Assembly: GCF_000018105.1 (NCBI RefSeq)
Contig: NC_009928.1
Location: 241,122 to 273,121 of the forward strand
From: Acaryochloris marina MBIC11017
Lineage (GTDB): Bacteria; Cyanobacteriota; Cyanobacteriia; Thermosynechococcales; Thermosynechococcaceae
Reading direction: 5' to 3'
Length of the DNA: 32,000 nucleotides
A program made the position numbers and the translations under genes. Shown here piece by piece: positions 2,662 through 31,464 of this stretch. How positions within the stretch are numbered: position 1 is the stretch's first letter; each line of letters begins with the position of its first letter. A model generated the notes under the pieces. The model saw only the letters and a list, made by a program, of their open reading frames with translations, did no database searches and was not told where the DNA came from.

Positions 2662-3501
2662 TTGCAAGGCATCAAGCGGATGATTCAAACTGACAGCACT
2701 GGCGCTTATCTCAAAGAAATCGGACGCTATCCCCTTCTATCCCACGAAGAAGAAATCCAACTTGCCAGACAAGCTAAAGCTGGAAACCTTCGGGCCAAAC
2801 AACGGATGATCGAGTGCAATCTGCGCCTGGTCGTCTCCATTGCTAAAAAGCATCAGAATCGGGGCTTGCCATTCATGGACTTAATCCAAGAAGGCAGCAT
2901 CGGGCTGAGTCGAGCCGTTGAGAAGTTCGAGCCTGAGCAGGGGTATCGCTTCAGTACCTATGCCTATTGGTGGATTCGACAGGGAATAACCCGCTCGATA
3001 CAGAATAACAGTCGTGTGATTCGCCTCCCTGTGTGGCATTGGCAGACAGGAAACCAAATCAAACAGACTCAACGACAACTCTCCCAAGAATTCGGTCGTG
3101 AGCCTACACTTGCTGAACTTGCTGAGGCAATGGAGATTGACCTCGACAAACTGAAGCAAAACATGCATCATCTTCAAGATGTTCTCTCTCTCGATATGCA
3201 GGTTGGCAAGGAACAAGACACCACACTAGGAGAACTGATCGAAGCAGAACAATCGACACCAACCCATCTTGAACTGCTGAACCAGAGTGAAGAGGTATCG
3301 AGTTATTTATCACTCCTAGATGAACGGCAACGCTATGTGATTGTCCAGCGATATGGATTAGAAGATGGCGAAGCTAAGACCATGCAAGATATTGGTCAGC
3401 AGCTTGGCGTCAGCCGGGAGCGGATTCGACAAATTATCAACAAAGCGATGAAGAAATTACAGAAAAACAGTGACCTAGCTACAGAAATCAAGACGGCCTA
3501 G
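2662..3501 (+). CDS. RNA polymerase sigma70-family factor (short group 2/3-like)
   Basis: Region 1.2/2.1 [20 protein letters not shown]. Region 2.2-2.4 [12 protein letters not shown]...[41 protein letters not shown]. Region 4.2 [27 protein letters not shown]. The start may be TTG 2662 or ATG 2680. Confidence 0.9.
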
Positions 3502-12717: not shown

Positions 12718-13074
12718 GTGGGTCGGCTGTGTAACGCCTCGTAAACAAAACCCGTTAATTTCGCTTCAACTAATTAGGTTTTAAATCCATTTTTGATGGG
12801 GAAACCAACTGGATAATGCTGATTTGTGATTTGAATCACGTCTAGAAAAAGACTAGATCACAAGAAGAAAGAAAGTCTTTCGAACCTGGCTTTTTGCATC
12901 ACTAAATCTAACTTTTTCGGTATTTCGCCTTATTGAAAAGTTGACGATAGTGGGTTCAACAGCACGGGACATTAAATCCCACAGCCAGTCTCAACAAATC
13001 TGAGGTGCCGATCTAAATACTGGTTGGTATCAAGAGCAAGAAGCTCAACTTACCCACAAAAAGGAGCAAGGACA

Positions 13075-15906
13075 ATGACTATTGAAGCAAGATATGACAT
13101 CGACCCCGACCTAACTGGAATCTCTCGTATTACTGATGATTCTCCCATTCAGTTCCTATCGAATCGCCTCGATCATTGGAAGGGATTGAAACATTATCGA
13201 TTTGACTTAACCGTTCGCAATTCTTACCAGTTTGCTACTGCACCTAATCATGATGGCAAGCACGGTGGTTCGCTAGAACTCACCAGATTTAATAAGAAGT
13301 GGACTAATCAGAAACAGGACTACTATCAGTATAAAACCCTCTTTGGTACTGATTCAAGAGACGTTATTTACGAAACCCAAGACTATAGATACTTGGGGGG
13401 TTGGGGTGAATACCTTGACGAAACATTGAAACCTGTTTCACAAAACATATACGGTGGTGGCGGTAATGACACCATTATTGCTCATGATTTGCAAGGTTAT
13501 AGCGACAGCGTAAAGAGTTATTTAAACGGTGATCCAAGTAGTATTAATCAATTTCATGGTGAAGCTGGAAATGACATTTTGAAAGGTAACGCGTTCCAGA
13601 ACCTCCTGTATGGAGGGACTGGCAACGATACGCTAGATGGTGGCGGAGGCGATGATTTTCTCTCAGGCAATGAAGATAATGACAAACTATGGGGTGGAGA
13701 TGGAGAAGATCAACTCTTTGGCGGAATAGGAAATGACATTCTGGTTGGTGGAGACGGATACGATGAAATAGACGCTGGTGATGGTGATGACACGATTTTT
13801 CTGGATGTTCCAATTGAGGGTAACAATAAGGGTGACTATGTAATTGGTGGAACAGGTGCTGACACCTTCGTCATTGGTGGCACGACAATGACTACTACTA
13901 CTACCACCACCACCACACCCTATGACTGGAAGGGGACAGGTTTAGGTGCCACTACTGATGTAATGGGTGCTGTCATTGATGGTACTGGTTTAGGTGTCGC
14001 CTCGAAAGTTACCAAAGGTGTTGTTGGTGCTGTTATTGATATTTTTAAGGGTGCTGAAAGCAAAAATGTTGAAACAACCACAGTGGAATCAGTACCTGGC
14101 AACATAGCAACAGGAAATTATATCCAAATCACTGATTTTAATCCTAGAGAAGATGTCATTGTTATTCCTATAAGTGCTGAACTGTCTAATGTTGGGCGTA
14201 CTATCACAGATGATAATTTGCGTACGCTAGAACTCTACTACAAAGACAGCGGGCGAGTTTTTGCCGAAATCAAGCTTGAAGAACTCTATAAACTTTACAA
14301 CAACGACGAAGTTGCTCTGAATATCAACAACCGTGATGAGTTGGAGAGCGTTTGGGAATCTGTTCTAGACAGCTCACTCTATCTTGGTACATATGATGCC
14401 AATGACTCTAGTCCCACCATTAAGTTAGGTACAACAACAGAAAACTTTAAAAATGCTGATGGCAGTCTTACCGAAATCAAAACCACTGTATCTGAGCTAG
14501 ATGCTAACTACATGGTTATTGGCGCTTATGCAGGAGCTAATATTCTTACTTCAGGTAAGGACGATGATCTCTGGGGAACTGACTATAATGACGTTCTCGT
14601 AGCCTATCCCACAGCTTCCAATAAAGAACCTCAGCATAATGAGATCAATAAGCTATACGGTTTCAACGGGGATGACATTTTAGCTGGTGGTGCTGGTGCC
14701 GATTATTACTTTGGTGGTGACGGTACTGATATTGTGTCTTATGCTGACGATAGATTTGACGATAACGATTCTAATGGCATCACAGTTAATCTTGCAGACT
14801 CGCTTGAAGGAAATAAAGAAGACTATGCCTACTTAGACCCTGAAAGTGAAAAAGCAATTTTTTCTTGGGCTTGGGATGTTTATGCAGATCCTCTGGACCC
14901 AGATCAGGCTGACAAGCTATTCAGTATTGAGGGCATTATTGGTTCCAAATGGGATGACAGTATTAAAGGAGATAAGTGGAACAACATATTCAATGGTGGT
15001 GACGGAAATGACACCCTAGAGGGTGGCGCCGGAAATGATACTCTCATTGGTGGTGAGGGTGAGGATACCCTAGAGGGTGGCGGCGGAAATGATACCCTCA
15101 TTGGTGGTGCTGGTAGCGATACTCTAATCGGCGATGTTGTTGCTGGTAACGATACTCTAATCGTCGATGCTGGTGCAGATACTTTTGTGTTAGATACCAC
15201 TGAAGGTGGCATCGACACGATCAGAGGCTTTAGCCTTGCAGAAAATGATGTGCTCTTGATTGACAATAAGAGCCTAGGTACTAGTCATGCGAAAGCCCGG
15301 AACTTGAATGGAATGCTCTCCGCTACGGGCCTTAAGCTTCAGTTAGGCAACGTAGGAATTGCGACTATCGAAAACGTCGATAGCTCTAACGTTCATCGAG
15401 TGCTGGGTCGTGTCGAATTCACCACTAGCTCACACATCAACACACCACTTGGCCTCGGCGATGATTTGCTGGCAACAGGTGACGGCAATGATAGGCTCAC
15501 GGGAGGATCGGGTGACGACCTTCTCAGTGGTGGTGCTGGAAATGACACTCTGCTAGGCGGCACGCACAAAGACCTTTTACTGGGTGGTCGTGGGGATGAT
15601 TTACTCGACGGGGGAAAGGGCATTGACCGTCTCTATGGCGGCAGTGGTGCGGACACCTTCGTCATCAACAACACGGTATCAGGCCTCAACAAGAGATCAG
15701 GCATCGATGTTATCCAAGACTTCAGTGTGGATGAATTCGATCACATTCAGATTGATGCTTCTGTCTTCGGTATCGGGATTAACGATCACCATTTAGTTCA
15801 GCTTGGCAATGACAGTTTCTTACGAGTGAACAACAGAAAAATTGCACAGCTTACCGGTGTGGATGTGAATACTTTCGTCACCGACGAACATGTTAACTTG
15901 GTCTAA
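13075..15906 (+). CDS. Large RTX-type calcium-binding repeat protein (probable T1SS substrate)
   Basis: Three blocks of hemolysin-type nonapeptides GGxGxDxUx, for example GGTGNDTLDGGGGDDFLSGNEDNDKLWGGDGEDQLFGGIGNDILVGGDGYDEIDAGDGDD, GGDGNDTLEGGAGNDTLIGGEGEDTLEGGGGNDTLIGGAGSDTL and GGSGDDLLSGGAGNDTLLGG. No N-terminal signal peptide. AAGGAG lies 8 nt upstream of ATG 13075; the track start at 13024 is a TTG. Confidence 0.9.
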   Translation: MTIEARYDIDPDLTGISRITDDSPIQFLSNRLDHWKGLKHYRFDLTVRNSYQFATAPNHDGKHGGSLELTRFNKKWTNQKQDYYQYKTLFGTDSRDVIYETQDYRYLGGWGEYLDETLKPVSQNIYGGGGNDTIIAHDLQGYSDSVKSYLNGDPSSINQFHGEAGNDILKGNAFQNLLYGGTGNDTLDGGGGDDFLSGNEDNDKLWGGDGEDQLFGGIGNDILVGGDGYDEIDAGDGDDTIFLDVPIEGNNKGDYVIGGTGADTFVIGGTTMTTTTTTTTTPYDWKGTGLGATTDVMGAVIDGTGLGVASKVTKGVVGAVIDIFKGAESKNVETTTVESVPGNIATGNYIQITDFNPREDVIVIPISAELSNVGRTITDDNLRTLELYYKDSGRVFAEIKLEELYKLYNNDEVALNINNRDELESVWESVLDSSLYLGTYDANDSSPTIKLGTTTENFKNADGSLTEIKTTVSELDANYMVIGAYAGANILTSGKDDDLWGTDYNDVLVAYPTASNKEPQHNEINKLYGFNGDDILAGGAGADYYFGGDGTDIVSYADDRFDDNDSNGITVNLADSLEGNKEDYAYLDPESEKAIFSWAWDVYADPLDPDQADKLFSIEGIIGSKWDDSIKGDKWNNIFNGGDGNDTLEGGAGNDTLIGGEGEDTLEGGGGNDTLIGGAGSDTLIGDVVAGNDTLIVDAGADTFVLDTTEGGIDTIRGFSLAENDVLLIDNKSLGTSHAKARNLNGMLSATGLKLQLGNVGIATIENVDSSNVHRVLGRVEFTTSSHINTPLGLGDDLLATGDGNDRLTGGSGDDLLSGGAGNDTLLGGTHKDLLLGGRGDDLLDGGKGIDRLYGGSGADTFVINNTVSGLNKRSGIDVIQDFSVDEFDHIQIDASVFGIGINDHHLVQLGNDSFLRVNNRKIAQLTGVDVNTFVTDEHVNLV

Positions 15907-17412: not shown

Positions 17413-17423
17413 AATATACCCCT
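17413..17423 (-). promoter_or_regulatory. Backbone motif copy (minus strand AGGGGTATATT)
   Basis: aatatacccct lies in the intergenic region just downstream of the YlqD-like stop, 58 nt upstream of a 16-codon mini-ORF. Confidence 0.35.
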
Positions 17424-18455: not shown

Positions 18456-19097
18456 CTACTCCTCCACCACAGTGGCTTTTAAGAGCGGCTGCTTTCCCGG
18501 CGTCAGTTGATTGGCCGTTAGCTTACTCACTAGCGCAGCCACCTCTGGACGCTGCATAATTTCATCGGCTTTGGCCTGGATTCGGGCGTTGACGTATCGG
18601 TTGGCACTTTCATCCAACTCACCCAAAACTTGTACAACCTGATGGATGGTATTCTCCGTCGCCAAGTCGATAATCGGATCTATCTTCCGCTTCAGAACTT
18701 CCGGTAGTTCAGCTCTGGGGATTGCAGATTCTACCAGTGGTACCTCTTCTACCCCTCGCATCTCTGCTTTGACCGCATCAACAGGGTCAACCCCTTCCTC
18801 AGAGACACGCTCACAGACGAGGATAAACAGTGGGTGATATAGGTCGTCTCCTGTCTCAATCCCTTCAGCAGAAATCGCCTTGTGGATAGGCTTAAGGTCC
18901 ACTTGATACATCTCAGATGTGTAGATGCACCAGCCATGCGTGTAGGTGTCTGCGTTGTTTTCAGCCTTGAGCTGGAGGACACCCTGCAAGGTCTCCAGAT
19001 CATAGCCGTCCTCGCTCATTCCGCAGGCCCGTAGTAGCTTGTCGAGGTCATTTTGCTCAATGCCCAATGTTTGGGTTAGGTCAGTTGCATTCGTCAT
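18456..19097 (-). CDS. Hypothetical protein (213 aa)
   Basis: Clean acidic ORF. ATG 19097 lies 30 nt downstream of the first copy of the three-copy motif array. Confidence 0.75.
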   Translation of the reverse strand: MTNATDLTQTLGIEQNDLDKLLRACGMSEDGYDLETLQGVLQLKAENNADTYTHGWCIYTSEMYQVDLKPIHKAISAEGIETGDDLYHPLFILVCERVSEEGVDPVDAVKAEMRGVEEVPLVESAIPRAELPEVLKRKIDPIIDLATENTIHQVVQVLGELDESANRYVNARIQAKADEIMQRPEVAALVSKLTANQLTPGKQPLLKATVVEE

Positions 19098-19244: not shown

Positions 19245-19643
19245 TCAGTCGTCCATAACGAACTCTTCAAATTCCGCTTGCGACTCATCCCAAGGGGGTG
19301 TGTCATCAAGGTCATCGGCTTCCGCTGGTAATGTGCCACCAGGGTTACTCAGTGTTGGTGCAACCATGACGGGTAGGGGCACCTCTGCTTCAGCTAGCCC
19401 CAAAGCCATCTGGTAATAGCCTTCAACTTGGACCCTAGAAACTTCAATAGCCCCTTGAATCGCAGCTCGATTACGAGTCTGGATGGCGACAGACAGCACC
19501 TTTAGCACAGAAAACATAATGTCCATGCATAGCCGGGTAAAACTGGGTCCAGGGCCGTAGTGATTGCGAACCGTTTTGACAATTACCCCTCGCTCAGAGG
19601 TGAGTTTCCACTGAGTCTTTACCTTGAAATAGATATCAGACAT
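19245..19643 (-). CDS. Small protein with acidic C-terminal tail; candidate ParR-like adaptor
   Basis: 132 aa. It overlaps the parM-like stop by 8 nt (translational coupling). The tail is AEADDLDDTPPWDESQAEFEEFVMDD. The assignment rests on position only. Confidence 0.7.
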   Translation of the reverse strand: MSDIYFKVKTQWKLTSERGVIVKTVRNHYGPGPSFTRLCMDIMFSVLKVLSVAIQTRNRAAIQGAIEVSRVQVEGYYQMALGLAEAEVPLPVMVAPTLSNPGGTLPAEADDLDDTPPWDESQAEFEEFVMDD

Positions 19644-20754
19644 TGCTCACCTCCGCTTTTGCACGCTTAGCTGACTTAGTAGTCTTGGTTGTCTTGACAC
19701 TTTTACGAGTGGGGGGAGCTTGCAACGTTTCAGGACGATCTGCACTCTGCCGCCATACCAGATAGGCATCCGTCAGACGGTAGGTCATCGGAGACTTTGA
19801 CCATTCTGGGAATTCCTGACCAATAGTGCGAATCACAGGGCCTAGGGAGTCCATCTTGCCACTAAAGAATTCCTTGAGCTGCTTAGACCAGGCGGGCGCA
19901 CCCCCTCCCGCAACATAGATGCGCTTGGCTTGCACCACATCTATGTCACTACTCAATTGATGCTGGAGATTCACCCAGTACAGATCCCTAGCTTGGCGTA
20001 AGGAAGCCACGATGGGGCCAGCTTTCTCACCCAATGTCTTCTCAAGCCCTTTCTGGCCAACCCCCTGGGAAAAAATCAGCTTGGCACCCGTCAGCTCATT
20101 CGATGGTGTCCAGTTCATATGGTGCTGAATCATCAATGAGCCTCGTCCAGCCCAGGTCTGGATATAGCCCAAGCCACTATGCTCATCCTTGACCTTCGTC
20201 AAAGTGAAGTCCTTGTGACCAAACATCAGAATAATCGAGGGGTAGACCTTGGCATACGAGACGATTCCCGCACTCTCTGGCAAGACATTCACAAACCTCG
20301 GCGCACAGGTCAGTTGCTTCGGCCCGTACAAAAACTTGCTGACGTACTTCGCCAAATCTCGCTTCATCTGGGCAAAGCTTGGCTCCTCACTCTGAGGCAA
20401 GAGCAAGTCCAAATACATCTCGCAACCATTCCCAGCCTTCGAGATGGCATACCCCGCAATCGACAGCACCTTGGCAATCGCTTCAGGGTGCTTGTGCTGA
20501 TCTGTATTCGTCTGCCTGAGATTGGTTTCGGCAATCTGGCCCGTCTGCCAGTACATCCCTCCATAGCCAAGGAGAGAACTGTGAGCGGAGTTGTCGTGGT
20601 CCGACTCCTCATACAGACTCTCGGTTGTTCTGAGGACAGCAGATGGTTGTGTAATACATTCCTCAATCGGAAGCTTGCCATCCGGTGCAATTTGCAAGAA
20701 GGCTTTGGTCAAACTTGCACCGACATCGACCGTCAAAAATATTTTTGTAGTCAT
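19636..20754 (-). CDS. parM: ParM/StbA-like actin-fold plasmid segregation ATPase
   Basis: MTTKIFLTVDVGASLTKAF carries the phosphate-1 motif DxGxxxxK. RIYVAGGGAPAW carries the GGG loop. The protein is 372 aa. ATG 20754 is preferred because the TTG-extended ORF (to 20799) would run through a motif copy. Confidence 0.85.
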   Translation of the reverse strand: MTTKIFLTVDVGASLTKAFLQIAPDGKLPIEECITQPSAVLRTTESLYEESDHDNSAHSSLLGYGGMYWQTGQIAETNLRQTNTDQHKHPEAIAKVLSIAGYAISKAGNGCEMYLDLLLPQSEEPSFAQMKRDLAKYVSKFLYGPKQLTCAPRFVNVLPESAGIVSYAKVYPSIILMFGHKDFTLTKVKDEHSGLGYIQTWAGRGSLMIQHHMNWTPSNELTGAKLIFSQGVGQKGLEKTLGEKAGPIVASLRQARDLYWVNLQHQLSSDIDVVQAKRIYVAGGGAPAWSKQLKEFFSGKMDSLGPVIRTIGQEFPEWSKSPMTYRLTDAYLVWRQSADRPETLQAPPTRKSVKTTKTTKSAKRAKAEVSNV

Positions 20755-20783
20755 GTTGAAAAACCTATCGGTTTGGTCAAGGT

Positions 20784-20794
20784 AATGTACCCCC
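20784..20794 (-). promoter_or_regulatory. Backbone motif copy upstream of parM (minus strand GGGGGTACATT)
   Basis: aatgtaccccc, with 29 nt between the motif and ATG 20754. Confidence 0.4.
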
Positions 20795-20991
20795 GCCAAA
20801 ATTGCGGTTTTTGGGGGTCGATTGGGGGTCGTTTAGGTACTCGAAAGCCCTATTTGCAAGGATCCTAGAGATGGTGCTACTTTGGGGGCAGATTCAAGAG
20901 GTTCTGGAGGGGTCGCTGAGGCTCCCACACCCATCACCACTCCGAGGCACCGGAACGGAAATTTACCCAATCGGACTGACCCTAAATTTTC

Positions 20992-21086
20992 GTAGTACAT
21001 TCAGAAACATTTTTGTACTATCACGTAGTACTTCCGTAGTTGTTTTGTAGCTTCACTCTGTAGTATTCAGTAGTATCTCTGTAGTT
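20992..21086. repeat. Array of about eight yGTAGTwy iterons at 10-13 bp phasing in the parM/relaxase divergent intergenic region
   Basis: GTAGT(A/T) occurs at 20992, 21025, 21036, 21060, 21070 and 21081, with variants GTACTA at 21015 and GTAGCT at 21047. Confidence 0.7.
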
Positions 21087-21205
21087 TTTATGAGAACGAT
21101 CACGTTTGTGGTCGATGGAATCGCTTTTTAAAAATTTCACTGCAGTTATTCCCATGCTTAAAACTTTCCTGAAGCGTCTGAACCGCTGAATCAAAGGCCG
21201 ATGTC

Positions 21206-24200
21206 ATGAAGACGATGCGGACCATCTATGGAGAGATGATTGACTATTACGATGAGGATGAATCTCTCGTAGATGCTCCAGAGCGCTATTACAGCGAATC
21301 CGAGGTTATCACTGACATCGACCGCATGAGTACCGCTGTCTGGGTCGGCTCCAACGCGATTGTTCAAAAGTTAGGCACCTACGTTAAACGAGAGGACTTT
21401 AAAGCCCTCAGTCGAGGATTTCTGCCTGAATCCTTAAAGAGTGTCGCGGGTGGTGCAGTCCAACGGATTCGGGGCAAGAAACCCAACGAAGAAGACAAAG
21501 AACGCCTTGCCCATGACCTGGTGCTGTCTGCGCCTAAAAGTGTGTCGATGGCCCTGCACTTAGAGGGGGACAACCGGATCTTTGATGCCCACATGGAGGC
21601 AGTTCTCGAAACCTTTGAGTTGCTTGAACGCGAGTATGCCCAGACCCGAATTCAAGTAAACGGGGTGCGCTCCGTCGTCGATACGGGCAATATGATTGCT
21701 GCATTGATGCCTCATCACACGTCTCGCGATGGAGACATGCAGCTCCACACCCACATGCTGATCATGAATGGCACTGAGGGGCCAGATGGTCGGTGGCGCT
21801 CCCTCTCTCATGAAAAGCTGGCTCAGGCCAAGTGGATCGGCAGCTTCTACCGTCAGAAGTTAGCTGAGAAAGTTCAACGGCTGGGCTATCGCATCTATCA
21901 AACCAAGGATGCATTTGAGCTAGTGGGCTACGACCGTTCTGATGTCGAAGTCTTTTCTAAGCGTCACCGGGCCATCGTCAAAGCGGTTCAGAAAGAGGGG
22001 CTAGAAGTTACTCCTGAGAATAAGAAGCTGAAGGTACTCCCCACTCGCAAAGCTAAGCGGGGTGTGGGCAAAAAGCTCGAAATCATCCAAGACCATTGGA
22101 GAGAAGAAGCCCGCTCTCAAGGGGTGGGTCATCCGGTTTTGGCTGAACCTCTGGCTGTAATGCCTGACCCAGACCGAGCCAGGTATGAGGTTGAAAGTGC
22201 TATTCGCCATTATGCGGAGTGGTCCTCAATCTTTGAGAAGGACGACATCTATGCCTATGTCTTCAAGACCCTCAAACGTCAAGGCATGGCTATGGAACAG
22301 GTGGATGAGGCCATCAAGCAAAGCAAGGAACTGATCCCCGTTGACCGTGGATTCACCACCGTCACTGCCGTTGAAGAAGAAGCCCAGATCCACCAGCGCT
22401 GGATGGAGGGCCAAGGTCAAGCTCAGCCGATGGTCGCTCATCCTTCCCTTTTGGGGATTAGCGTTGAGCTGAATGAAGACCAGGCCAAGGCCATACTCAA
22501 TACCCTCTCCAGCTCTGACCGTTACCAAATCTGGCAGGGCTTTCCAGGGGTGGGCAAATCTCGCACATTGGGGGTACTCAAGACTTTACTCAATGGATCT
22601 GGCTTAAGTATTCGGGGATTCAGCCCCACGATTCCAGCCGCAAAGAAGCTCCAGGATGAGCTTGGAATCACGACCAATACCGTTGAGCATCTAGTTCTAC
22701 ATAAAGTTGAGGACAGCCCCAATCAAGTCTGGCTGATTGATGAAGCGGGCATGATGAGCCGACGACAGATGAAGGTGATTCTGGAGAAAGCTGAACCCAT
22801 TGGGGCACAAGTCATCTTCGTAGGGGATGCAGGTCAAAACTCTGCGATTGAGGCAGGCAATCCCTTCAAGTTCATGCAGGCCAATGGAGCCACCACCCAT
22901 CGGATTGAGGAGATTGTCAGGCAAAAAGTTGATGTCCAAAAGCAGGCCGTTGAACTGATTGCTAGAGGCAGAGGAATTGCAGCACTAGAACTCCTCGATG
23001 CTAATGGATATGTGATTGAGTCGGGCTGTAAAGCGGAAATGGCCCAAGCCGCAGCAGATCAGTTCCTCGCACTCCCCCTCAAAGAACAAGAGGAAACCCT
23101 GATTATCGCTGGCACCAATGAGGAACGACTCGATACGGAGCAAGCCATTCGTTGGGGTGAGAAACAAGCGGGACGGCTAGGGGAATCCAGCAAGATTGTT
23201 CAGCTCAAGTCTCGCAACCTGAGTATCGAACAAAAGCGACGGGCGGATTGGTATCGAAAAGGGGATTACGTTCGGCTACTGCAAACATCGAAGACATCAT
23301 CCATCAAACGGGGACAGCTCTACAAGGTGGAGAAGCGAGAGGGAGATGAGCTGGTGGTATCTTCCTTTGGCGGTCGGCTCTATCGATTCAAACCCGCGAA
23401 ATACAAACTAAAGGAGGTCTACAGTGCCCATAAATTTGATGTGGCCGTTGGAGATAAGTTGCGGTGGACGACAACGATCAAAGAAAACAACTGGATTAAC
23501 GGTCAGCAGCTCACGGTCACCGCCCTCGATGGCTTGAATATGAAGGTCAGGGACCATGAGGGACGTTCCCATGATGTGCCACTGACGCAACCGCTTGCCT
23601 TGGAGTATGACCGGGTGTGGACTTCCTACCGCTCCCAGAGTGGCACGAAGAAACGGACGATTGTCATCACCACGAATGACCGGACCTCAAGCCGAGAGCC
23701 GTTCCTCGTCGATATTTCCCGACAAGAACATGAATTGACTGTCTATACCGAGAGCCTGAACAAACTCAGAAACCGAGTCGCCAAATCCAATGCTCAAAAA
23801 AGTGCTTTAGATCTAATCGAGGGAACCTATGGAAACCAACGAACAACAACAACAGAACGTCAACAATCAACAGCAGATCATCAACAATCAACAGCAGATC
23901 ATCAACGAGCTTCGAGTCCAGTTAGCCCCACTCACGGACGCGATCACCATCTTGACCAATCAAGTCGAAGAGGTCCAAACTCAGAACCAACACATCCTCG
24001 ACGAAAACAGAGAACTCAAGTCCCAGGTCAGGGAGCGGATCAACACCATCCCAATGGAAGTCAAAGCCGTTCTCAACCTATTTATCCAGGAGTTCAAGGA
24101 GGCGATGGCATCCAAGAAACCCTCGGATATGAGCGAGAGCATCAAGGAACTCGCCAAGGCAATGGACAACTTAAGGATGAAAATCGAGGATACCAGCGTG

Positions 24201-26815
24201 TTGCAGTTGACGATGAGCGACAAGGTATTGGAGGCCGCAGAGGAAATTATGCAGATCAAGAACAAGCTCCCCCGACACGCCCCACCCAAGACGGTCGCTC
24301 AACAGAATGGGGGTCAACCTCCTCAGACCTAGCAAACTGGGTGATGCAATGGTCTGAGGAGCAAGAGCTTGCAGCAAGTGGGTTAGGTGAACACCTGCTA
24401 GCCCTCTCTCAAAGCATAAACAGACTGAGTGAAAATCTCGATAATGTTTCTTTTAATGGCCTGGGCGAATTGGCTGAAGTCGTAGTAAGGGAGCTAGAAC
24501 AACAAGCCCTCGCCCAGAACCTTACTCATATTGCCCAATCCATTGACCAGATTGACCAGACCATCGAACAGACGGTTAGACAGCAAAGGATCAGGAGCAT
24601 TGCCGATGCTGTCACAGAATGGCGAACGGGCCAGGAGCTGGCAAATGCCGTCACCGAAATGGTGAATGTCCTGACTCAGGGCACTGAAGGGCTAGACCGG
24701 GCAATCATCCGACTCCAAGCCGGGATTGAAGCCACCCAATCTCTGGATGTCCAATTCCCCGCAATGGCTGAATTGGTCGATGCCGTTCATGATTGGCAAA
24801 CTGAGGTGGAAGTCTCTGCGGTCATGGGCGAAGTGCAGGACTTGGTTGCGTCAATCACGGTGCCCCAATTCCTGGGCATGGATGACCTGGCTCAGGATGT
24901 CCATGCCCTCAACGAAGAACAAGCCTTGGCTGAGAGTGGCTTGATTGAGCAGTTAGCTGAGTTGACCACTCAGATTAACGAGTTGGTTGAACCCCAGCAA
25001 GTTCAGTTTGAGGGCATAACTCAGTTGGCCGAAGTGGTGAGCGAACTCCAGCAGGGGCAATCCCTCGCTCAGGTGCAACCTCAGCTCCAGGCCATCACCC
25101 AGCAGATTGAAGCGTTTAACGCCAAGCAACCCACTTTTTCTTTTGCCAGAATCAAGGAGCTGGCCGATACCGTCAGTGAATGGAGGGCACATGAGTCCAT
25201 TGCTCAGCACATTGGCGCACTCAATGATCTAACCGTTCGCGCTCAACGAAGTCTGAGAATCTTCCCAGCTATGCTGCAATTGGCTAAATCCGTGAAGGCG
25301 ATGCGCTCAGTGGATGCACTCATGAATGGGCCAGTCGCAAATCAGCTCAAGGAAGTCGCCCAACAGTTGACAGACAAGGGAATAAGCGTCACTCCTAAGC
25401 CCAAAACCATTGATGATCAGGTGTTCTGGACACCCGACTATGAGGGAGTGGCGCGGCCAGACTACATTGATGAAAAACACTGGAATGAATGGGTGTCTAG
25501 TTGTGCCCATCCTGATGTGATTGCCGCTCGGCTCCAATCCATCGCCGATGATCAGGTGATTGATCGGTTGCTGGGAGCCAAGATTGAAGACATCGCCACT
25601 CGTAGACGGGATGGGTCTTTCAAGACGGTTCGTACTCAATATCCCATTAAAGCGATTCGGTCTTTGATTAATGAGCGGTCTCATCCTGAAGTGTTGAGCT
25701 ATCAAGAGCTAGCTGAAGGTGGGGGCTGGTGGGCTGATGCTGGAGTGGATCCGCTGTCCTTTGAAGAACTTGGCCCCAATGAGGAACCCACACTGAGTCT
25801 ATATGGAACGTTTAAACCTGATACTCCCCGCATTGACGTAGACAAGACCCGCAGAGCTAGGGCTAAAAACCCCAATGCCCCAACCAAATATCGCAAGTAT
25901 GAGAATCCATTGGGAACCAAGCGCGAATTGTTCGAGCGAGACATGGCATTCCAACCCGTCCCAGACCATATCGCTGAGCGGATCTTTGCCAAGTATGGTG
26001 TCACCCAAACCCAGGAGGAGAAAGCCAAGGGATTCTGGTACACGGTCTACAAGCATCCTGAGATTCCCATCTACCGGACTGAAGGCGATAAAAAAGATGC
26101 GGCATTAGTCTCTCAAGGAAGAGTCGTCATTGGTGGTCAGGGGGTCAACATCGGCTATCGGGCCAAGAACCAGCACGATGAAAAGCTCGAAAGAAGAGTA
26201 CTGCACCCTCAGCTAGACGTGTTTGCGGTTCCAGGCAGAGAGTTCAGGTATGCCCATGACTGGGATTCTGAGCAGTCCACGGTCTGGAACGTTCGCCGTG
26301 AAATGGTCAGAGAGGCTGAACTCATTGAAGAAAGAGACTGCAAGACATGGAGAATTCCTTGGGATTCTGAGAAAGGGAAAGGCGTCGATGACCTGATCGC
26401 TAATCATGGCCCCATCGCCTTTGAGCGGGCCGACAAGAATGCCTATCCGATGGAGCGGGAAATCACGATGCACTATCGGGGCCAGTACACCCAGATTAAG
26501 AAGCGATTAAATCGTCACTTTGGATGCGCGGTCCACGATATTCCCATTTACCTAGAAGCGATGAAGGATGGGGACGAGATGGATGGCATTCGGGTCCTAT
26601 GGGAGTCTTCCACTGCCCGGTCCTTCCAGCATTACCATGACAAGCAGCACTATATCGAGGGCATCATCAAACTCTCGGATGCCTATCGTAGACTCGTCAG
26701 AAAAGACGGTGACCCCAAGGCCATGCAAATCCTCGTCAACAGACTAAAAAAGCCCCGACCCATTATCAAGGTCGAGGCCAGAAGTCGGAATATAAAACGA
26801 GGCTATGGACGTTAG
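21206..26815 (+). CDS. MOBF-type (TrwC/TraI-like) relaxase plus RecD-like helicase, ending in a helical-repeat region and a Toprim-like (DUF3854-type) domain, all as one 1869-codon ORF
   Basis: N-terminal ERYYSE...WVGSNAIVQKLG. His triad HHTSRDGDMQLHTHMLIMN. Walker A GFPGVGKSRTLG. Walker B VWLIDEAGMMS. C-terminal IYRTEGDKKDAALVSQGRVVIGGQGV (Toprim Glu) and GKGVDDLIANHG (DxD). The bridge at 23829-24332 is suspect; see findings. Confidence 0.85.
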   Translation: MKTMRTIYGEMIDYYDEDESLVDAPERYYSESEVITDIDRMSTAVWVGSNAIVQKLGTYVKREDFKALSRGFLPESLKSVAGGAVQRIRGKKPNEEDKERLAHDLVLSAPKSVSMALHLEGDNRIFDAHMEAVLETFELLEREYAQTRIQVNGVRSVVDTGNMIAALMPHHTSRDGDMQLHTHMLIMNGTEGPDGRWRSLSHEKLAQAKWIGSFYRQKLAEKVQRLGYRIYQTKDAFELVGYDRSDVEVFSKRHRAIVKAVQKEGLEVTPENKKLKVLPTRKAKRGVGKKLEIIQDHWREEARSQGVGHPVLAEPLAVMPDPDRARYEVESAIRHYAEWSSIFEKDDIYAYVFKTLKRQGMAMEQVDEAIKQSKELIPVDRGFTTVTAVEEEAQIHQRWMEGQGQAQPMVAHPSLLGISVELNEDQAKAILNTLSSSDRYQIWQGFPGVGKSRTLGVLKTLLNGSGLSIRGFSPTIPAAKKLQDELGITTNTVEHLVLHKVEDSPNQVWLIDEAGMMSRRQMKVILEKAEPIGAQVIFVGDAGQNSAIEAGNPFKFMQANGATTHRIEEIVRQKVDVQKQAVELIARGRGIAALELLDANGYVIESGCKAEMAQAAADQFLALPLKEQEETLIIAGTNEERLDTEQAIRWGEKQAGRLGESSKIVQLKSRNLSIEQKRRADWYRKGDYVRLLQTSKTSSIKRGQLYKVEKREGDELVVSSFGGRLYRFKPAKYKLKEVYSAHKFDVAVGDKLRWTTTIKENNWINGQQLTVTALDGLNMKVRDHEGRSHDVPLTQPLALEYDRVWTSYRSQSGTKKRTIVITTNDRTSSREPFLVDISRQEHELTVYTESLNKLRNRVAKSNAQKSALDLIEGTYGNQRTTTTERQQSTADHQQSTADHQRASSPVSPTHGRDHHLDQSSRRGPNSEPTHPRRKQRTQVPGQGADQHHPNGSQSRSQPIYPGVQGGDGIQETLGYEREHQGTRQGNGQLKDENRGYQRVAVDDERQGIGGRRGNYADQEQAPPTRPTQDGRSTEWGSTSSDLANWVMQWSEEQELAASGLGEHLLALSQSINRLSENLDNVSFNGLGELAEVVVRELEQQALAQNLTHIAQSIDQIDQTIEQTVRQQRIRSIADAVTEWRTGQELANAVTEMVNVLTQGTEGLDRAIIRLQAGIEATQSLDVQFPAMAELVDAVHDWQTEVEVSAVMGEVQDLVASITVPQFLGMDDLAQDVHALNEEQALAESGLIEQLAELTTQINELVEPQQVQFEGITQLAEVVSELQQGQSLAQVQPQLQAITQQIEAFNAKQPTFSFARIKELADTVSEWRAHESIAQHIGALNDLTVRAQRSLRIFPAMLQLAKSVKAMRSVDALMNGPVANQLKEVAQQLTDKGISVTPKPKTIDDQVFWTPDYEGVARPDYIDEKHWNEWVSSCAHPDVIAARLQSIADDQVIDRLLGAKIEDIATRRRDGSFKTVRTQYPIKAIRSLINERSHPEVLSYQELAEGGGWWADAGVDPLSFEELGPNEEPTLSLYGTFKPDTPRIDVDKTRRARAKNPNAPTKYRKYENPLGTKRELFERDMAFQPVPDHIAERIFAKYGVTQTQEEKAKGFWYTVYKHPEIPIYRTEGDKKDAALVSQGRVVIGGQGVNIGYRAKNQHDEKLERRVLHPQLDVFAVPGREFRYAHDWDSEQSTVWNVRREMVREAELIEERDCKTWRIPWDSEKGKGVDDLIANHGPIAFERADKNAYPMEREITMHYRGQYTQIKKRLNRHFGCAVHDIPIYLEAMKDGDEMDGIRVLWESSTARSFQHYHDKQHYIEGIIKLSDAYRRLVRKDGDPKAMQILVNRLKKPRPIIKVEARSRNIKRGYGR
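23829..24332 (+). CDS. Embedded +1-frame ORF encoding a 167-aa coiled-coil-like protein (possible separate cistron)
   Basis: GAGG (23819-23822) lies 6 nt upstream of the ATG. An in-frame TAA sits at 23814. Codons are C/G-ending. The product is amphipathic (NELRVQLAPLTDAITILTNQVEEVQTQNQHILDENRELKSQV...). The ORF stops 11 nt before the in-frame ATG 24344 of the long ORF. Confidence 0.5.
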   Translation: METNEQQQQNVNNQQQIINNQQQIINELRVQLAPLTDAITILTNQVEEVQTQNQHILDENRELKSQVRERINTIPMEVKAVLNLFIQEFKEAMASKKPSDMSESIKELAKAMDNLRMKIEDTSVLQLTMSDKVLEAAEEIMQIKNKLPRHAPPKTVAQQNGGQPPQT

Positions 26816-29385: not shown

Positions 29386-29740
29386 ACCGTCCAAACCCTC
29401 GATTTTGGCCTCGGTTCCGATTCTGGGTGAGCTTGTGGCCGTGGGTTTCCACCGCGACTTTGAGCTGGGCACTCTTCACATACCGCTCCGCCATCTTGGT
29501 TGGGTCTTGCACTTTCTCGGCATAGTCGCTCATCCGTAGCTTGGTCTTAATCACATCCGTGGGGGTGTTGTTCCGTATCTCCTGCTTCGCCAGTTCCATT
29601 GCCTGTTCAGCGGTCTCGATCTTGACCGCCACTCGCGGCTTGCGGAGGGCGACGGCATTGATGATGACGCTGTTGGTCGCATTCACGGCCTGCTGGCCGA
29701 TTTGCAACGCTTCTCTAAATTGCTGTTCTTCGCTACTCAT
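29384..29740 (-). CDS. Hypothetical protein (118 aa), translationally coupled to the coupling-protein gene
   Basis: ATGA start/stop overlap with the T4CP gene at 29737-29740. The C-terminus is basic (NRNRGQNRGFGR). Confidence 0.7.
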   Translation of the reverse strand: MSSEEQQFREALQIGQQAVNATNSVIINAVALRKPRVAVKIETAEQAMELAKQEIRNNTPTDVIKTKLRMSDYAEKVQDPTKMAERYVKSAQLKVAVETHGHKLTQNRNRGQNRGFGR

Positions 29741-31464
29741 GCGGCTTGTTCCTCCTGTTGCTTCAATTTGTGGGATTCAACTTCTTGGGTAGAGGGCAGC
29801 AAAGCATCCGCAGACACCATGCGGTCGGACATGATTTGTTCTGGAGAATCTAACACCCGCTCTTGGGCTATCCTCTCCATCTGCCTATGGACATGGCTGT
29901 TGTACATCCGCTCACATTCGGTGAACCGCTGCATGTCCGTGCCATTCCGCTTCTTCAAGTTGAAGCGCATCCGAATGGGCCGATCATCCATGCCGGGGTT
30001 GGTGCAGATAAATTCCCCTTTCTTCAATCGCTTGATATCTGAAGCGGTAATCAACCGCTTCTTCTTCTCCTGTTCATTGCGGGAGCGGCTGTTGCCCATC
30101 TTCCCGTAGCTGCGAGATTTGGAATGGTAGTGCTTGGTGTATTCCCCCAAGTCCGCACTCAGGTCTTCTCGGACTTTGTAGCTCCCACTCTTGAATATGA
30201 ATTGGGTGGAGGTGTTATCAAAGATCGACTCTGAGGTCTCAGACTGATATTTAATCTTGGGTTGGCTATAGCTCTGCATGGACACAAAGGAATAGAACCC
30301 ATAGCTCCGATCCAAGGACACCACTTCTTCAAAGCTCGGCAGCATCAATCGGGCGAATTCATCTAGGAACACACCAAAGGGCCGATCCCGTTCTGTATCC
30401 TCATTCAGGTTGCGCTGAATCAGTAGGTGAATAGCAACTGCGACGAGGGGGGCCGTGGCTTTCTTGGCTTGTCCATCCAACTCAAAGAAGATGATTTGCT
30501 TACCCGGTAGGTCCAAAGGAATGGTGGATTGGGTGGGTTCGCGCCCATCGATGGACAGACAGGGGATGGTCTGCCGATTGACCATTGGTAAGAGATAGTT
30601 GATGCCACTCGCTAATATGCCACCAGCAGTATCTTGGGTGCCCGTCACGCTCATCAGGCCCACGAGCTGTTGCCTCACCCACATGCCCAAATCGCTATCT
30701 ACTTTGAATGCCCCTTCTTGGTCCGCCAACTGAATCCGCTCGGCGATGCCCGGCAGGCCCATCAAGGCCCAGACCATCGGCAAGTCCGCATAGTCTGCCC
30801 GCTTTGCCATCATCAGCAATGCTTGTAGAAGGTACTCGGCGTGATTGTCGAAGAAAGGATGCTTGTTCGACATATTGACAATCACGTTATCGGACAAGGT
30901 TGAGGCGATGGACCGGGCAATCAGGGAGTCATCCGCATCCCGCATAAATCCCAGGTAGTCAAAGCCATGACTATAGGGCTTGCCCGGAGCAAAGCAGTAG
31001 CACTCATAAGGAATTTTTTGCTTGCGGGCATAGGGGATGAATATCTTCTTGAGGGTGCCTTTGACATCAAAGACAATCAGAGTGTGCTCTTGAAGAATGG
31101 CATCTGCTAAAGCTAGCTCAATTAGTTTGGTCTTGCCCTTACCAGAGCCGCCTACGATGGTGACGAGGGGTTGGAGGTCGGGGAGGATCAGGGGGTCATC
31201 GCTACCCAAGCGCAGGGCAATCTCATCCCGTTTTCGGTCTCTGATCTGCTTGAGTCCCAGCATCTTAGCTCGATGCTGTTCCCGTCTCGTGGCCCACCGG
31301 GCATCATCGGGTTCACGTCTCGTCTCATCCTCAAACCACCACAGGGCAATCAGGATGAGAGCCAATAAGCCCGTCAACCAGGGGAGAGGGCCACTGAATA
31401 GGGGAGACAGGTCAACTCCTTCAGATTGGGGCTGGGGAGGCTGTTCGGTTTTGTGCTGCATCAT
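29737..31464 (-). CDS. Type IV secretion coupling protein (VirD4/TraG/TraD family)
   Basis: N-terminal TM helix LPWLTGLLALILIALWWF. Walker A IVGGSGKGKTKL. Walker B-like GVFLDEFARL. 575 aa. Confidence 0.9.
   Translation of the reverse strand: MMQHKTEQPPQPQSEGVDLSPLFSGPLPWLTGLLALILIALWWFEDETRREPDDARWATRREQHRAKMLGLKQIRDRKRDEIALRLGSDDPLILPDLQPLVTIVGGSGKGKTKLIELALADAILQEHTLIVFDVKGTLKKIFIPYARKQKIPYECYCFAPGKPYSHGFDYLGFMRDADDSLIARSIASTLSDNVIVNMSNKHPFFDNHAEYLLQALLMMAKRADYADLPMVWALMGLPGIAERIQLADQEGAFKVDSDLGMWVRQQLVGLMSVTGTQDTAGGILASGINYLLPMVNRQTIPCLSIDGREPTQSTIPLDLPGKQIIFFELDGQAKKATAPLVAVAIHLLIQRNLNEDTERDRPFGVFLDEFARLMLPSFEEVVSLDRSYGFYSFVSMQSYSQPKIKYQSETSESIFDNTSTQFIFKSGSYKVREDLSADLGEYTKHYHSKSRSYGKMGNSRSRNEQEKKKRLITASDIKRLKKGEFICTNPGMDDRPIRMRFNLKKRNGTDMQRFTECERMYNSHVHRQMERIAQERVLDSPEQIMSDRMVSADALLPSTQEVESHKLKQQEEQAA

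Follow-up and report, generated by a model that had tools for sequence, protein, structure and literature searches.

The DNA considered here is a 32,000-nucleotide stretch of Acaryochloris marina MBIC11017 (NCBI RefSeq contig NC_009928.1, positions 241,122 to 273,121 of the forward strand), referred to at its full length as the window. Within it, two gene groups diverge from an intergenic region of about 450 bp, and this region holds an array of eight short direct repeats, the GTARY array (20992–21085, + strand), whose role is the subject of this analysis. On one side of the array, on the − strand, lies the gene for a 372-residue ParM-like actin-fold ATPase (19636–20754), followed by the gene for a 132-residue ParR-like protein (19245–19643). 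On the other side, on the + strand, lies the gene for a 1869-residue relaxase-helicase of the MOBF/TrwC family with a C-terminal DUF3854 domain (21206–26815). A type IV coupling protein of the TraG/TrwB family is encoded on the − strand at 29737–31464.

The relaxase matches the Pfam families TrwC (1.5e-63), AAA_30 (1.6e-50) and DUF3854 (4.6e-42). Among PDB entries it is closest to R388 TrwC (1.3e-36); pCU1 and F TraI (1e-28) come next, and the HxDxxxHxH-type motif is aligned. The AlphaFold2 model of the 372-residue protein (pLDDT, the predicted local distance difference test score, 67) finds R1 ParM as its top Foldseek match (E 8e-13), and then the cyanobacterial CorM filament and pSK41 ParM; homologues of this protein have the PF17989 ALP_N domain, and a direct Pfam search with the protein itself gave no match. 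The ParR-like protein starts with an extended N-terminus, contains three helices and finishes in a disordered, acidic C-terminal tail whose last residues are FVMDD, and it gave no significant match in sequence or fold searches. It is called ParR-like on the basis of its position, the gene layout and its covariation with the iterons described below. The coupling protein matches TraG-D_C (1.6e-28), T4SS-DNA_transf (9e-23) and TrwB_AAD_bind (5.6e-22), which indicates that the window carries a DNA-transfer module. A first-pass annotation, made from the letters of the sequence alone, had named the two divergent genes parM and a relaxase gene, and the matches bear out both calls. The distances that it gave within the intergenic region agree with a parM-like start at 20754 and a relaxase ATG at 21206, and its other landmarks there were likewise found: a tandem pair of TTGGGGGTCG(A/T) iterons at 20811–20832, a copy of a backbone motif at about 20785 and an A/T-rich tract at 21124–21137.

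Six units of the array are exact GTAGT on the + strand, with the G of each at 20992, 21025, 21036, 21060, 21070 and 21081, and two variants, GTACT at 21015 and GTAGC at 21047, stand in register with them. The unit-to-unit spacings are 23, 10, 11, 11, 13, 10 and 11 bp. The same eight positions and spacings had been listed at first pass and were reproduced by reading the sequence and by pattern search, but the unit then proposed, yGTAGTwy, fits only four of the eight in its strict form. Over 80 aligned units from 10 plasmids, the consensus is yyyyGTA(G>A)(T>C)(A/T), in which the G, T and A are near-invariant (each in 73–74 of the 80).

Six GTAGT copies fall within the 94 bp of the array, compared to 24 on the same strand of the entire 32 kb. 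Over 500 shuffles, the count in a 100-bp window never exceeded four, and the cluster is not due to chance. The units are strongly phased, with a resultant length R of 0.92–0.94 at a period of 11.0–11.2 bp compared to 0.55 at 10.5 bp (p ~0.0015 under a null of eight non-overlapping sites in 90 bp). The helical phasing claimed at first pass is genuine, but its period is nearer 11.1 bp than 10.5 bp. For 10–11.5-bp periodicity of GTA, TTT and TT, the array region ranks first among 3189 windows of the 32-kb sequence. This regularity is partly due to an internal 45-bp duplication (21014–21047 versus 21059–21092, 74% identical). The region is also AT-rich, with 34–38% GC compared to 48% for the whole window, and T-rich on the + strand.

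The array does not encode protein, since each of the six frames through it in the window contains a stop, and none stays free of stops across the 10 plasmids. It is real, non-coding and phased. A structured RNA was considered and set aside, the only Rfam match being sub-threshold (20858–20910, 16 bits against a gathering score of 40 bits, E 0.3). Single-stranded DNA structure was rejected as well, the z scores of the array (+0.5) and of the conserved block described below (+1.8 and +1.6) being no better than those of shuffles. An inverted repeat in the window (20955–20965 with 20983–20993) is not conserved among relatives. The sole other local ACTAC/GTAGT cluster of the window, at 13891–13955 on the − strand, is a run with a 3-nt period inside a gene for an RTX-repeat protein (13024–15906); these pentamers are coding repeats and are unrelated to the GTARY array.

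Related loci were taken from four PLSDB plasmids (L001–L004), one Acaryochloris metagenome-assembled genome (MAG) and four more distant cyanobacterial MAG contigs (L005–L009), two metagenome contigs (L016, L017) and six further contigs reached via ParM homologues (L018, L019, L022, L023–L025). Ten of these loci, counting the window itself, form an Acaryochloris-type group (the window, L001–L005, L018, L019, L022 and L023), and the window is 85–87% identical to the Acaryochloris plasmids. Conservation of unit number and phasing in related plasmids, a comparison put forward at first pass, is borne out in this group. All eight units are retained in the nine other loci, which come from at least nine plasmids, and the spacing is the same apart from 1-bp shifts (throughout L019, and in the interval between units 1 and 2 in some others). 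In the more distant clade, the units number just one to three, and its ancestral pair is TTTTyGTA...TTGAAAC-TTTTTGTAGTAC, with members 21–23 bp apart.

In the window, the array lies 238–332 bp back from the parM-like start (20754), with a predicted nick core in between, and in all Acaryochloris-type plasmids it ends 46–70 bp before the first start codon of the relaxase operon. The conserved A/T tract follows the array and contains weak −35/−10-like hexamers seen by eye. A terminator scan of 20600–21400 detected none, and GC skew shows no switch beyond the effect of the divergent gene orientation.

The core is a 22-nt sequence at 20926–20947 on the − strand (CACACCCATCACCACTnCGAGG). It is invariant in every examined locus that covers the region, although the relaxases of these loci are 64–98% identical and their N-domains fall to 64–68%. 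With a slash marking the predicted nick, the − strand of the window reads 5′-CCTCGGAGTGGTGATGGGTGT/GGGAGCC, and the stretch across the core is 5′-CCGGTGCCTCGGAGTGGTGATGGGTGTGGGAGCCTCAGC-3′. On this strand the core reads ...GTGGTGATGGGTGTGGTGC in the distant clade and ...GGGTGTGGGAGCC in the window, so that the motif is GGGTGT/GGTGC in the former and GGGTGT/GGGAGCC in the latter. The nick region of F is GTGGGGTGT/GGTGC; the sequence was confirmed at F oriT (origin of transfer), and the position of the nick within it is the one that we take from the F literature. The distant-clade core agrees with the F nick region, GGGTGT/GGTGC, at 11 of 11 positions, and each matching locus has a single copy of the pattern GGGTGTGGKRS (GGGTGTGG(K)(R)(S)), as does the F nick region. 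The transfer genes of F and R388 lie 5′ of the nick and are antisense to the nicked strand, and the − strand of the window has the same relation to the relaxase gene. Because the core resembles the F nick region and shares this strand polarity, the nick is placed on the − strand at about the junction of + coordinates 20927 and 20926. A possible conserved hairpin by the core was considered, in which the variable base of CACTnCGAGG is paired in some loci (C:G, G:C or A:T); its stem is broken in five Acaryochloris-type loci, and a mini-hairpin, CCGnnACGG, competes with it.

The core lies 44 bp upstream of the array in each examined locus that covers the region, and in 10 plasmids unit 8 stands 151–153 bp from the core. 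The spacer of about 40 bp between the two elements (20948–20991 in the window) is variable in sequence and fixed in length. This length-locked distance argues for a stereospecific nucleoprotein complex that contains both elements. Unit number is conserved in the Acaryochloris-type group, and spacing and core distance are conserved to within 1–2 bp.

On the leading side of the predicted nick, alignments of the loci reveal a near-invariant block (20873–20925). It is near-identical in the window, L001–L004 and L022 and looser in L005, L018, L019 and L023. About 55–80 nt are near-identical in these six plasmids despite flanking genes that are far more diverged. With the nick polarity predicted here, transfer into a recipient would start with this block, which might serve as a signal for priming or establishment, an idea suggested by the C-terminal DUF3854 domain of the relaxase.

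The array goes with the relaxase module and is not linked to the ParMR genes. Among the window and L001–L005, relaxase N-domains are 78–98% identical, and the arrays of the Acaryochloris-type loci (excluding the frame-shifted L019) are 73–97% identical. In the same plasmids, the ParM-like proteins fall to 36–38% identity and the ParR-like proteins to 24–34%. Two plasmids that reside together in A. marina S15 have arrays that are 90% identical and ParR-like proteins that are 34% identical, and the corresponding values for two plasmids of strain Moss Beach are 97% and 27%. An oriT element tolerates being shared in this way by co-resident plasmids, while a centromere or a set of replication iterons would not. 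The two modules have also been separated by natural recombination in L022, which has the parM gene and iterons of the L004 type next to a block, an array and a relaxase that are of the window type; compared to the window, the identity is 95% for the array and only 37% for ParM. In this contig (ENA ERZ25067879, reverse complement, about 1700–2130), the parM gene is of the S15-unnamed8 type, the iterons are GAGTTCCC, and the junction falls between the iterons and the conserved block.

A different set of repeats co-varies with the ParR-like protein. Two tandem 11-bp iterons, TTGGGGGTCG(A/T), lie at 20811–20832, and eight of nine relatives examined have, at this position, two to seven copies of a 10–11-bp unit of their own. 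The unit is TTGGGGGTCGA in the window and in L001 (two copies in each), TTTGTCGGTCG in L002 (three copies), AATCCCGCA-type in L003 (about five), GAGTTCCC in L004 (seven) and L022 (six), and CTACCA-type in L019 (five); in L018, TCACAyCCC units form two clusters on either side of the promoter, as in R1. The comparison of L001 with L002 is instructive, since their ParM-like proteins are 96% identical and their arrays 97% identical, while their proximal iterons differ, and 12 of the 17 differing positions of their ParR-like proteins are within the first 34 residues. Conversely, the window and L001 have the same iterons, and the first 69 residues of their ParR-like proteins are identical. Changes in iteron sequence are thus matched by changes in the first 34 residues of the ParR-like protein. 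Such covariation is what would be expected of a centromere or operator and its binder, which places parC at 20811–20832 and not at the GTARY array. Judged on sequence comparison, the 20811–20832 iterons are the best candidate for a parC or operator of the ParMR-like operon.

A motif search locates a −10-like promoter element of the parM-like operon, GGGGGTACAT(TA), at 20784–20793 on the − strand, and this GGGGGTA(C/T)ATTA element adjoins the proximal iterons. A G-run followed by a −10-like motif, G(G/C)GGGTA(T/C)ATTA, recurs on the − strand of the window at 17414, 18006, 19219, 20785 and 31624. These copies precede − strand starts by tens of bp (roughly 30–160), including those of the YlqD-family, 213-residue, parM-like and coupling-protein genes, and the motif, which is the backbone motif of the first pass, is probably a shared promoter element of the backbone genes.

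Taken together, the array is interpreted as the accessory-protein and operator arm of a MOBF oriT on a cyanobacterial megaplasmid, with a layout like that of R388 stb-oriT-trw, a reading to which a probability of about 0.6 is given. The position of the nick, the binding of a protein and the effects on nicking and transcription are drawn from analogy and geometry. The features expected of a MOBF oriT that appear here, as far as sequence can tell, are AT-rich repeats adjacent to a relaxase gene, a nick sequence like that of the family and repeats positioned as accessory sites. In the proposed mechanism, the − strand would be cut by the relaxase within the invariant core, near 20926/20927, so that the parM side would form the leading end and the relaxase gene would enter the recipient last. 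The eight GTARY sites would then lie 65–160 bp to the 5′ (trailing) side of the nick, at a fixed distance, and immediately upstream of the relaxase gene, at the presumed location of its promoter. A small sequence-specific DNA-binding protein, modeled on accessory factors like TrwA and TraY, may coat the array cooperatively; the relaxase itself or a host factor would be less likely binders. Since the units repeat about every 11.1 bp, not every 10.5 bp, and coincide with phased T-tracts, the bound protein would follow a shallow left-handed path and bend or wrap the AT-rich DNA. This bending could help to melt and present the nick region, and it could also autoregulate relaxase transcription.

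Several observations weigh against this interpretation. Pfam, NCBIfam and PHROGs searches of the neighboring open reading frames (ORFs) found no accessory DNA-binding family, ribbon-helix-helix or other, and phmmer searches with R388 TrwA, R388 StbA and F TraM found no homologue among all ORFs of the window and nine loci. The TrwA/TraY-type gene expected next to a MOBF oriT is therefore missing from its usual place. Relatives do have a small ORF of 61–140 residues at the trwA position (for example, L001 4888–5304, L003 3301–3615 and L004 4283–4525), but this ORF duplicates part of the relaxase N-domain (Pfam/NCBIfam TrwC/MobF, at TrwC profile positions of about 70–117). It is absent from L023 and the distant clade, and alignments to relatives show that an in-frame deletion in the window has reduced it to a remnant of 11 codons, six from its start and five from its end (21155–21190, + strand, MLKTFLKRLNR and a stop). 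Eight units are not required in this relaxase family, because the distant relatives manage with one to three. The predicted nick site is assigned by similarity only, and the inverted repeat 5′ of it has stems of 3–5 bp, differs in position between clades and is absent in some loci. A consensus promoter scan of 20600–21400 found no sigma-70-type promoter. Finally, GTAGT stands on the relaxase coding strand in the window, and the direct CACTAC repeats of R388 have the opposite orientation relative to trwA; that the GTAGTG copies of R388 are TrwA sites, and hence the parallel in motif, is only a lead.

The suggestion at first pass of an oriT accessory site is consistent with all of the comparative evidence as far as the DNA is concerned, but the ribbon-helix-helix or other binder that went with it was not found. 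The cognate accessory protein may be encoded elsewhere. The 213-residue and 127-residue proteins of the operon were considered as binders and rejected, being mosaic and not conserved like the array, and a 118-residue ORF beside the coupling-protein gene has no family match. A more specific version of the proposal, that the array docks a new relaxosome accessory protein, perhaps distant- or chromosome-encoded, whose (G)TAGT/ACTAC motif is that of the TrwA-side repeats of R388-family plasmids, is speculative and on balance doubtful.

The other role proposed at first pass was that of parC. The ParR-like protein would then bind the array, as in R1, and the partition complex so formed would cap ParM filaments. 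The direct repeats of about 11 bp upstream of a true ParM-fold gene, with a ParR-like gene downstream of it, would suit this role, but repeats at this spacing are not specific to parC, and neither location at the parM promoter nor specificity for ParR is found for the array. Instead, 238–332 bp and the predicted nick core separate it from the parM start, and most of the plasmids examined have separate, plasmid-specific 10–11-bp iterons at the parM promoter. Arrays that are 90–97% identical occur in co-resident plasmids whose ParR-like proteins are only 27–34% identical, and a shared centromere would cause incompatibility. In L001 and L002, the ParR-like N-termini and the proximal iterons differ while the arrays are 97% identical, the window and L001 share both the 69-residue ParR-like N-terminus and the proximal iterons, and L022 recombines the array and the ParMR module. 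The parC assignment was thus not upheld, and it is very unlikely. Much the same objection from co-residence applies to iterons of a replication origin, bound by the DUF3854/Toprim-like region of the relaxase or by another Rep. DUF3854 is also found in cyanobacterial plasmid replication proteins, the array is co-inherited with a DUF3854-bearing relaxase, and the region is AT-rich and repeated. However, near-identical arrays in co-resident plasmids would be expected to produce incompatibility, a 5-bp core at 11-bp spacing is unlike typical iterons of 17–22 bp, there is no GC-skew switch beyond that of divergent gene orientation, and a relaxase-type nick core is only 44 bp away, all of which makes this explanation extremely improbable.

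Two further explanations overlap with the oriT interpretation. The array could act on transcription only, as an operator of the relaxase promoter or an element upstream of it to which a plasmid or host regulator binds, with no part in nicking or transfer, as might be suggested by its end 46–70 bp before the first start codon of the relaxase operon, by the conserved A/T tract with weak −35/−10-like hexamers that follows, and by the repression of all of the R388 Dtr (DNA transfer) and maintenance promoters tested (PMC3937220). A pure promoter element would not need a 151–153-bp lock to the nick core across a variable spacer, a consensus promoter was not detected and a regulator was not identified, and the roles of operator and accessory site coincide in known MOBF systems (PMC3264647); an operator-only role is unlikely. 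Alternatively, the array could be intrinsically curved or a favored site of HU or another non-specific nucleoid protein, making an architectural bend at oriT that needs no dedicated sequence-specific binder. The phasing of TT and TTT at 10–11.5 bp is the strongest in the window, the DNA is AT-rich and a dedicated protein was not found. Yet the bases that are near-invariant across the 80 units are G-T-A, and then R-Y, rather than the T-tracts, which suggests base-specific recognition, and a similar G/CTAC motif occurs in the equivalent interval of R388-family plasmids that encode a specific ribbon-helix-helix protein. A bend of this kind as the whole explanation is quite unlikely.

Some other features of the window and its relatives were noted. 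The 213-residue protein (18456–19097, − strand), whose gene lies downstream of that for the ParR-like protein, is a mosaic: all of the plasmids share its N-terminal half, and its C-terminal half exists in two unrelated versions, one in the window and L004 and the other in L001, L002 and L005. In L007, a Thermosynechococcaceae MAG contig, the interval from the parM-like gene to the core (2111–2870) contains four elements of about 35 bp, GGGGACTTTTTGGA-N8-CCTATTACTAA, two in each orientation, with one pair near parM and one near the core. These elements may be the centromere or operator of that plasmid. Elsewhere in the window are genes for an AbrB-like regulator and for a sigma-70-family factor (1634–2011 and 2662–3501).

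Acaryochloris strains have up to nine plasmids, with a mobF relaxase on each (PMC9324425). No oriT of an Acaryochloris plasmid is described in the literature searched, which included that comparative plasmid study (PMC9324425). The present analysis separates three cis elements within one 450-bp region, namely a candidate parC at 20811–20832, a predicted nick core at 20926–20947 and the array at 20992–21085, and it thereby defines testable fragments for mobilizable or stably partitioned vectors in chlorophyll-d cyanobacteria. The delineation of the oriT is new; the class of element is familiar and of a mechanistically expected kind, and no new principle is involved. R388-type coupling of a stability operon to oriT would then also exist in cyanobacteria, there with a ParMR system. 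If the doubtful proposal of an accessory protein with a shared motif were true, the architecture of the relaxosome (stability operon, 11-bp iterons, nick, GTAGT repeats, relaxase) would be conserved from Proteobacteria to Cyanobacteria, and near-identical arrays would let a single factor control the transfer of all co-resident Acaryochloris megaplasmids.

Among known systems, the array shares some features with the parC of R1 and pSK41, in which direct repeats of about 11 bp lie near the gene for a ParM-fold ATPase and are wrapped by ParR into a superhelical complex. R1 parC has ten 11-bp repeats, as cited in a preprint (bioRxiv 10.1101/2025.06.27.661541). The iterons of R1 flank the parMR promoter and determine incompatibility, whereas the GTARY array is distant from the parM promoter and shared by co-resident plasmids. 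The array also shows no covariation with the ParR-like protein, and it is the iterons at 20811–20832 that fit the R1 model instead.

The F plasmid has its accessory sites 5′ of the nick, toward the transfer genes, as would be the case in the window, and its first transfer gene stands at a comparable distance from the nick, about 320 bp in F and 228–279 bp in the plasmids studied here. However, there is no GTAGT or ACTAC between the nick and traM in F, where sites for TraY, IHF and TraM are found. F further differs in that TraY and TraM are encoded next to oriT, and in how far the flanking inverted repeat stands from the nick.

The closest parallel is R388. More generally, oriT regions are AT-rich, intergenic and rich in repeats (PMC4853378), and in R388 the oriT is flanked by divergent MOB (mobilization) and stb operons with the nick between them (PMC3098194). 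The stbDRs of R388 are 2x5 repeats that surround the stbA promoter at a period of 11 bp, and the stb operon passes into the recipient first (PMC3098194). TrwA, a ribbon-helix-helix protein, binds two sites at oriT, represses trwABC and stimulates nicking (PMC3264647, PMC4853378, PMC3937220). Within the 33.9-kb plasmid, 4 of the 12 GTAGTG copies fall within 73 bp between the nick and trwA, two as direct repeats 11 bp apart and two as an inverted pair. R388 differs from the window in several respects: its stability genes are StbA/StbB rather than ParM/ParR-like, it has a TrwA gene while no TrwA-like gene lies beside the window array, it has four sites (two direct and an inverted pair) in place of eight same-strand units, and the window has a nick sequence nearer that of F and a coupling-protein gene outside the relaxase operon. 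The two nevertheless share an arrangement in which a stability operon on the leading side and a relaxase operon on the trailing side diverge from oriT, with iterons of 11-bp period around the promoter of the stability operon and a nick strand that is antisense to the relaxase gene. In pMBUI4 and pPL2, of the TrwA family, (G)CTAC(A/G)GG repeats occupy the interval from the nick to the Dtr genes, and 11-bp iterons lie on the stb side. R388, pMBUI4 and pPL2 thus have the same order of elements as the window: a stability operon, 11-bp iterons, the nick, (G)TAGT/CTAC repeats and the Dtr operon.

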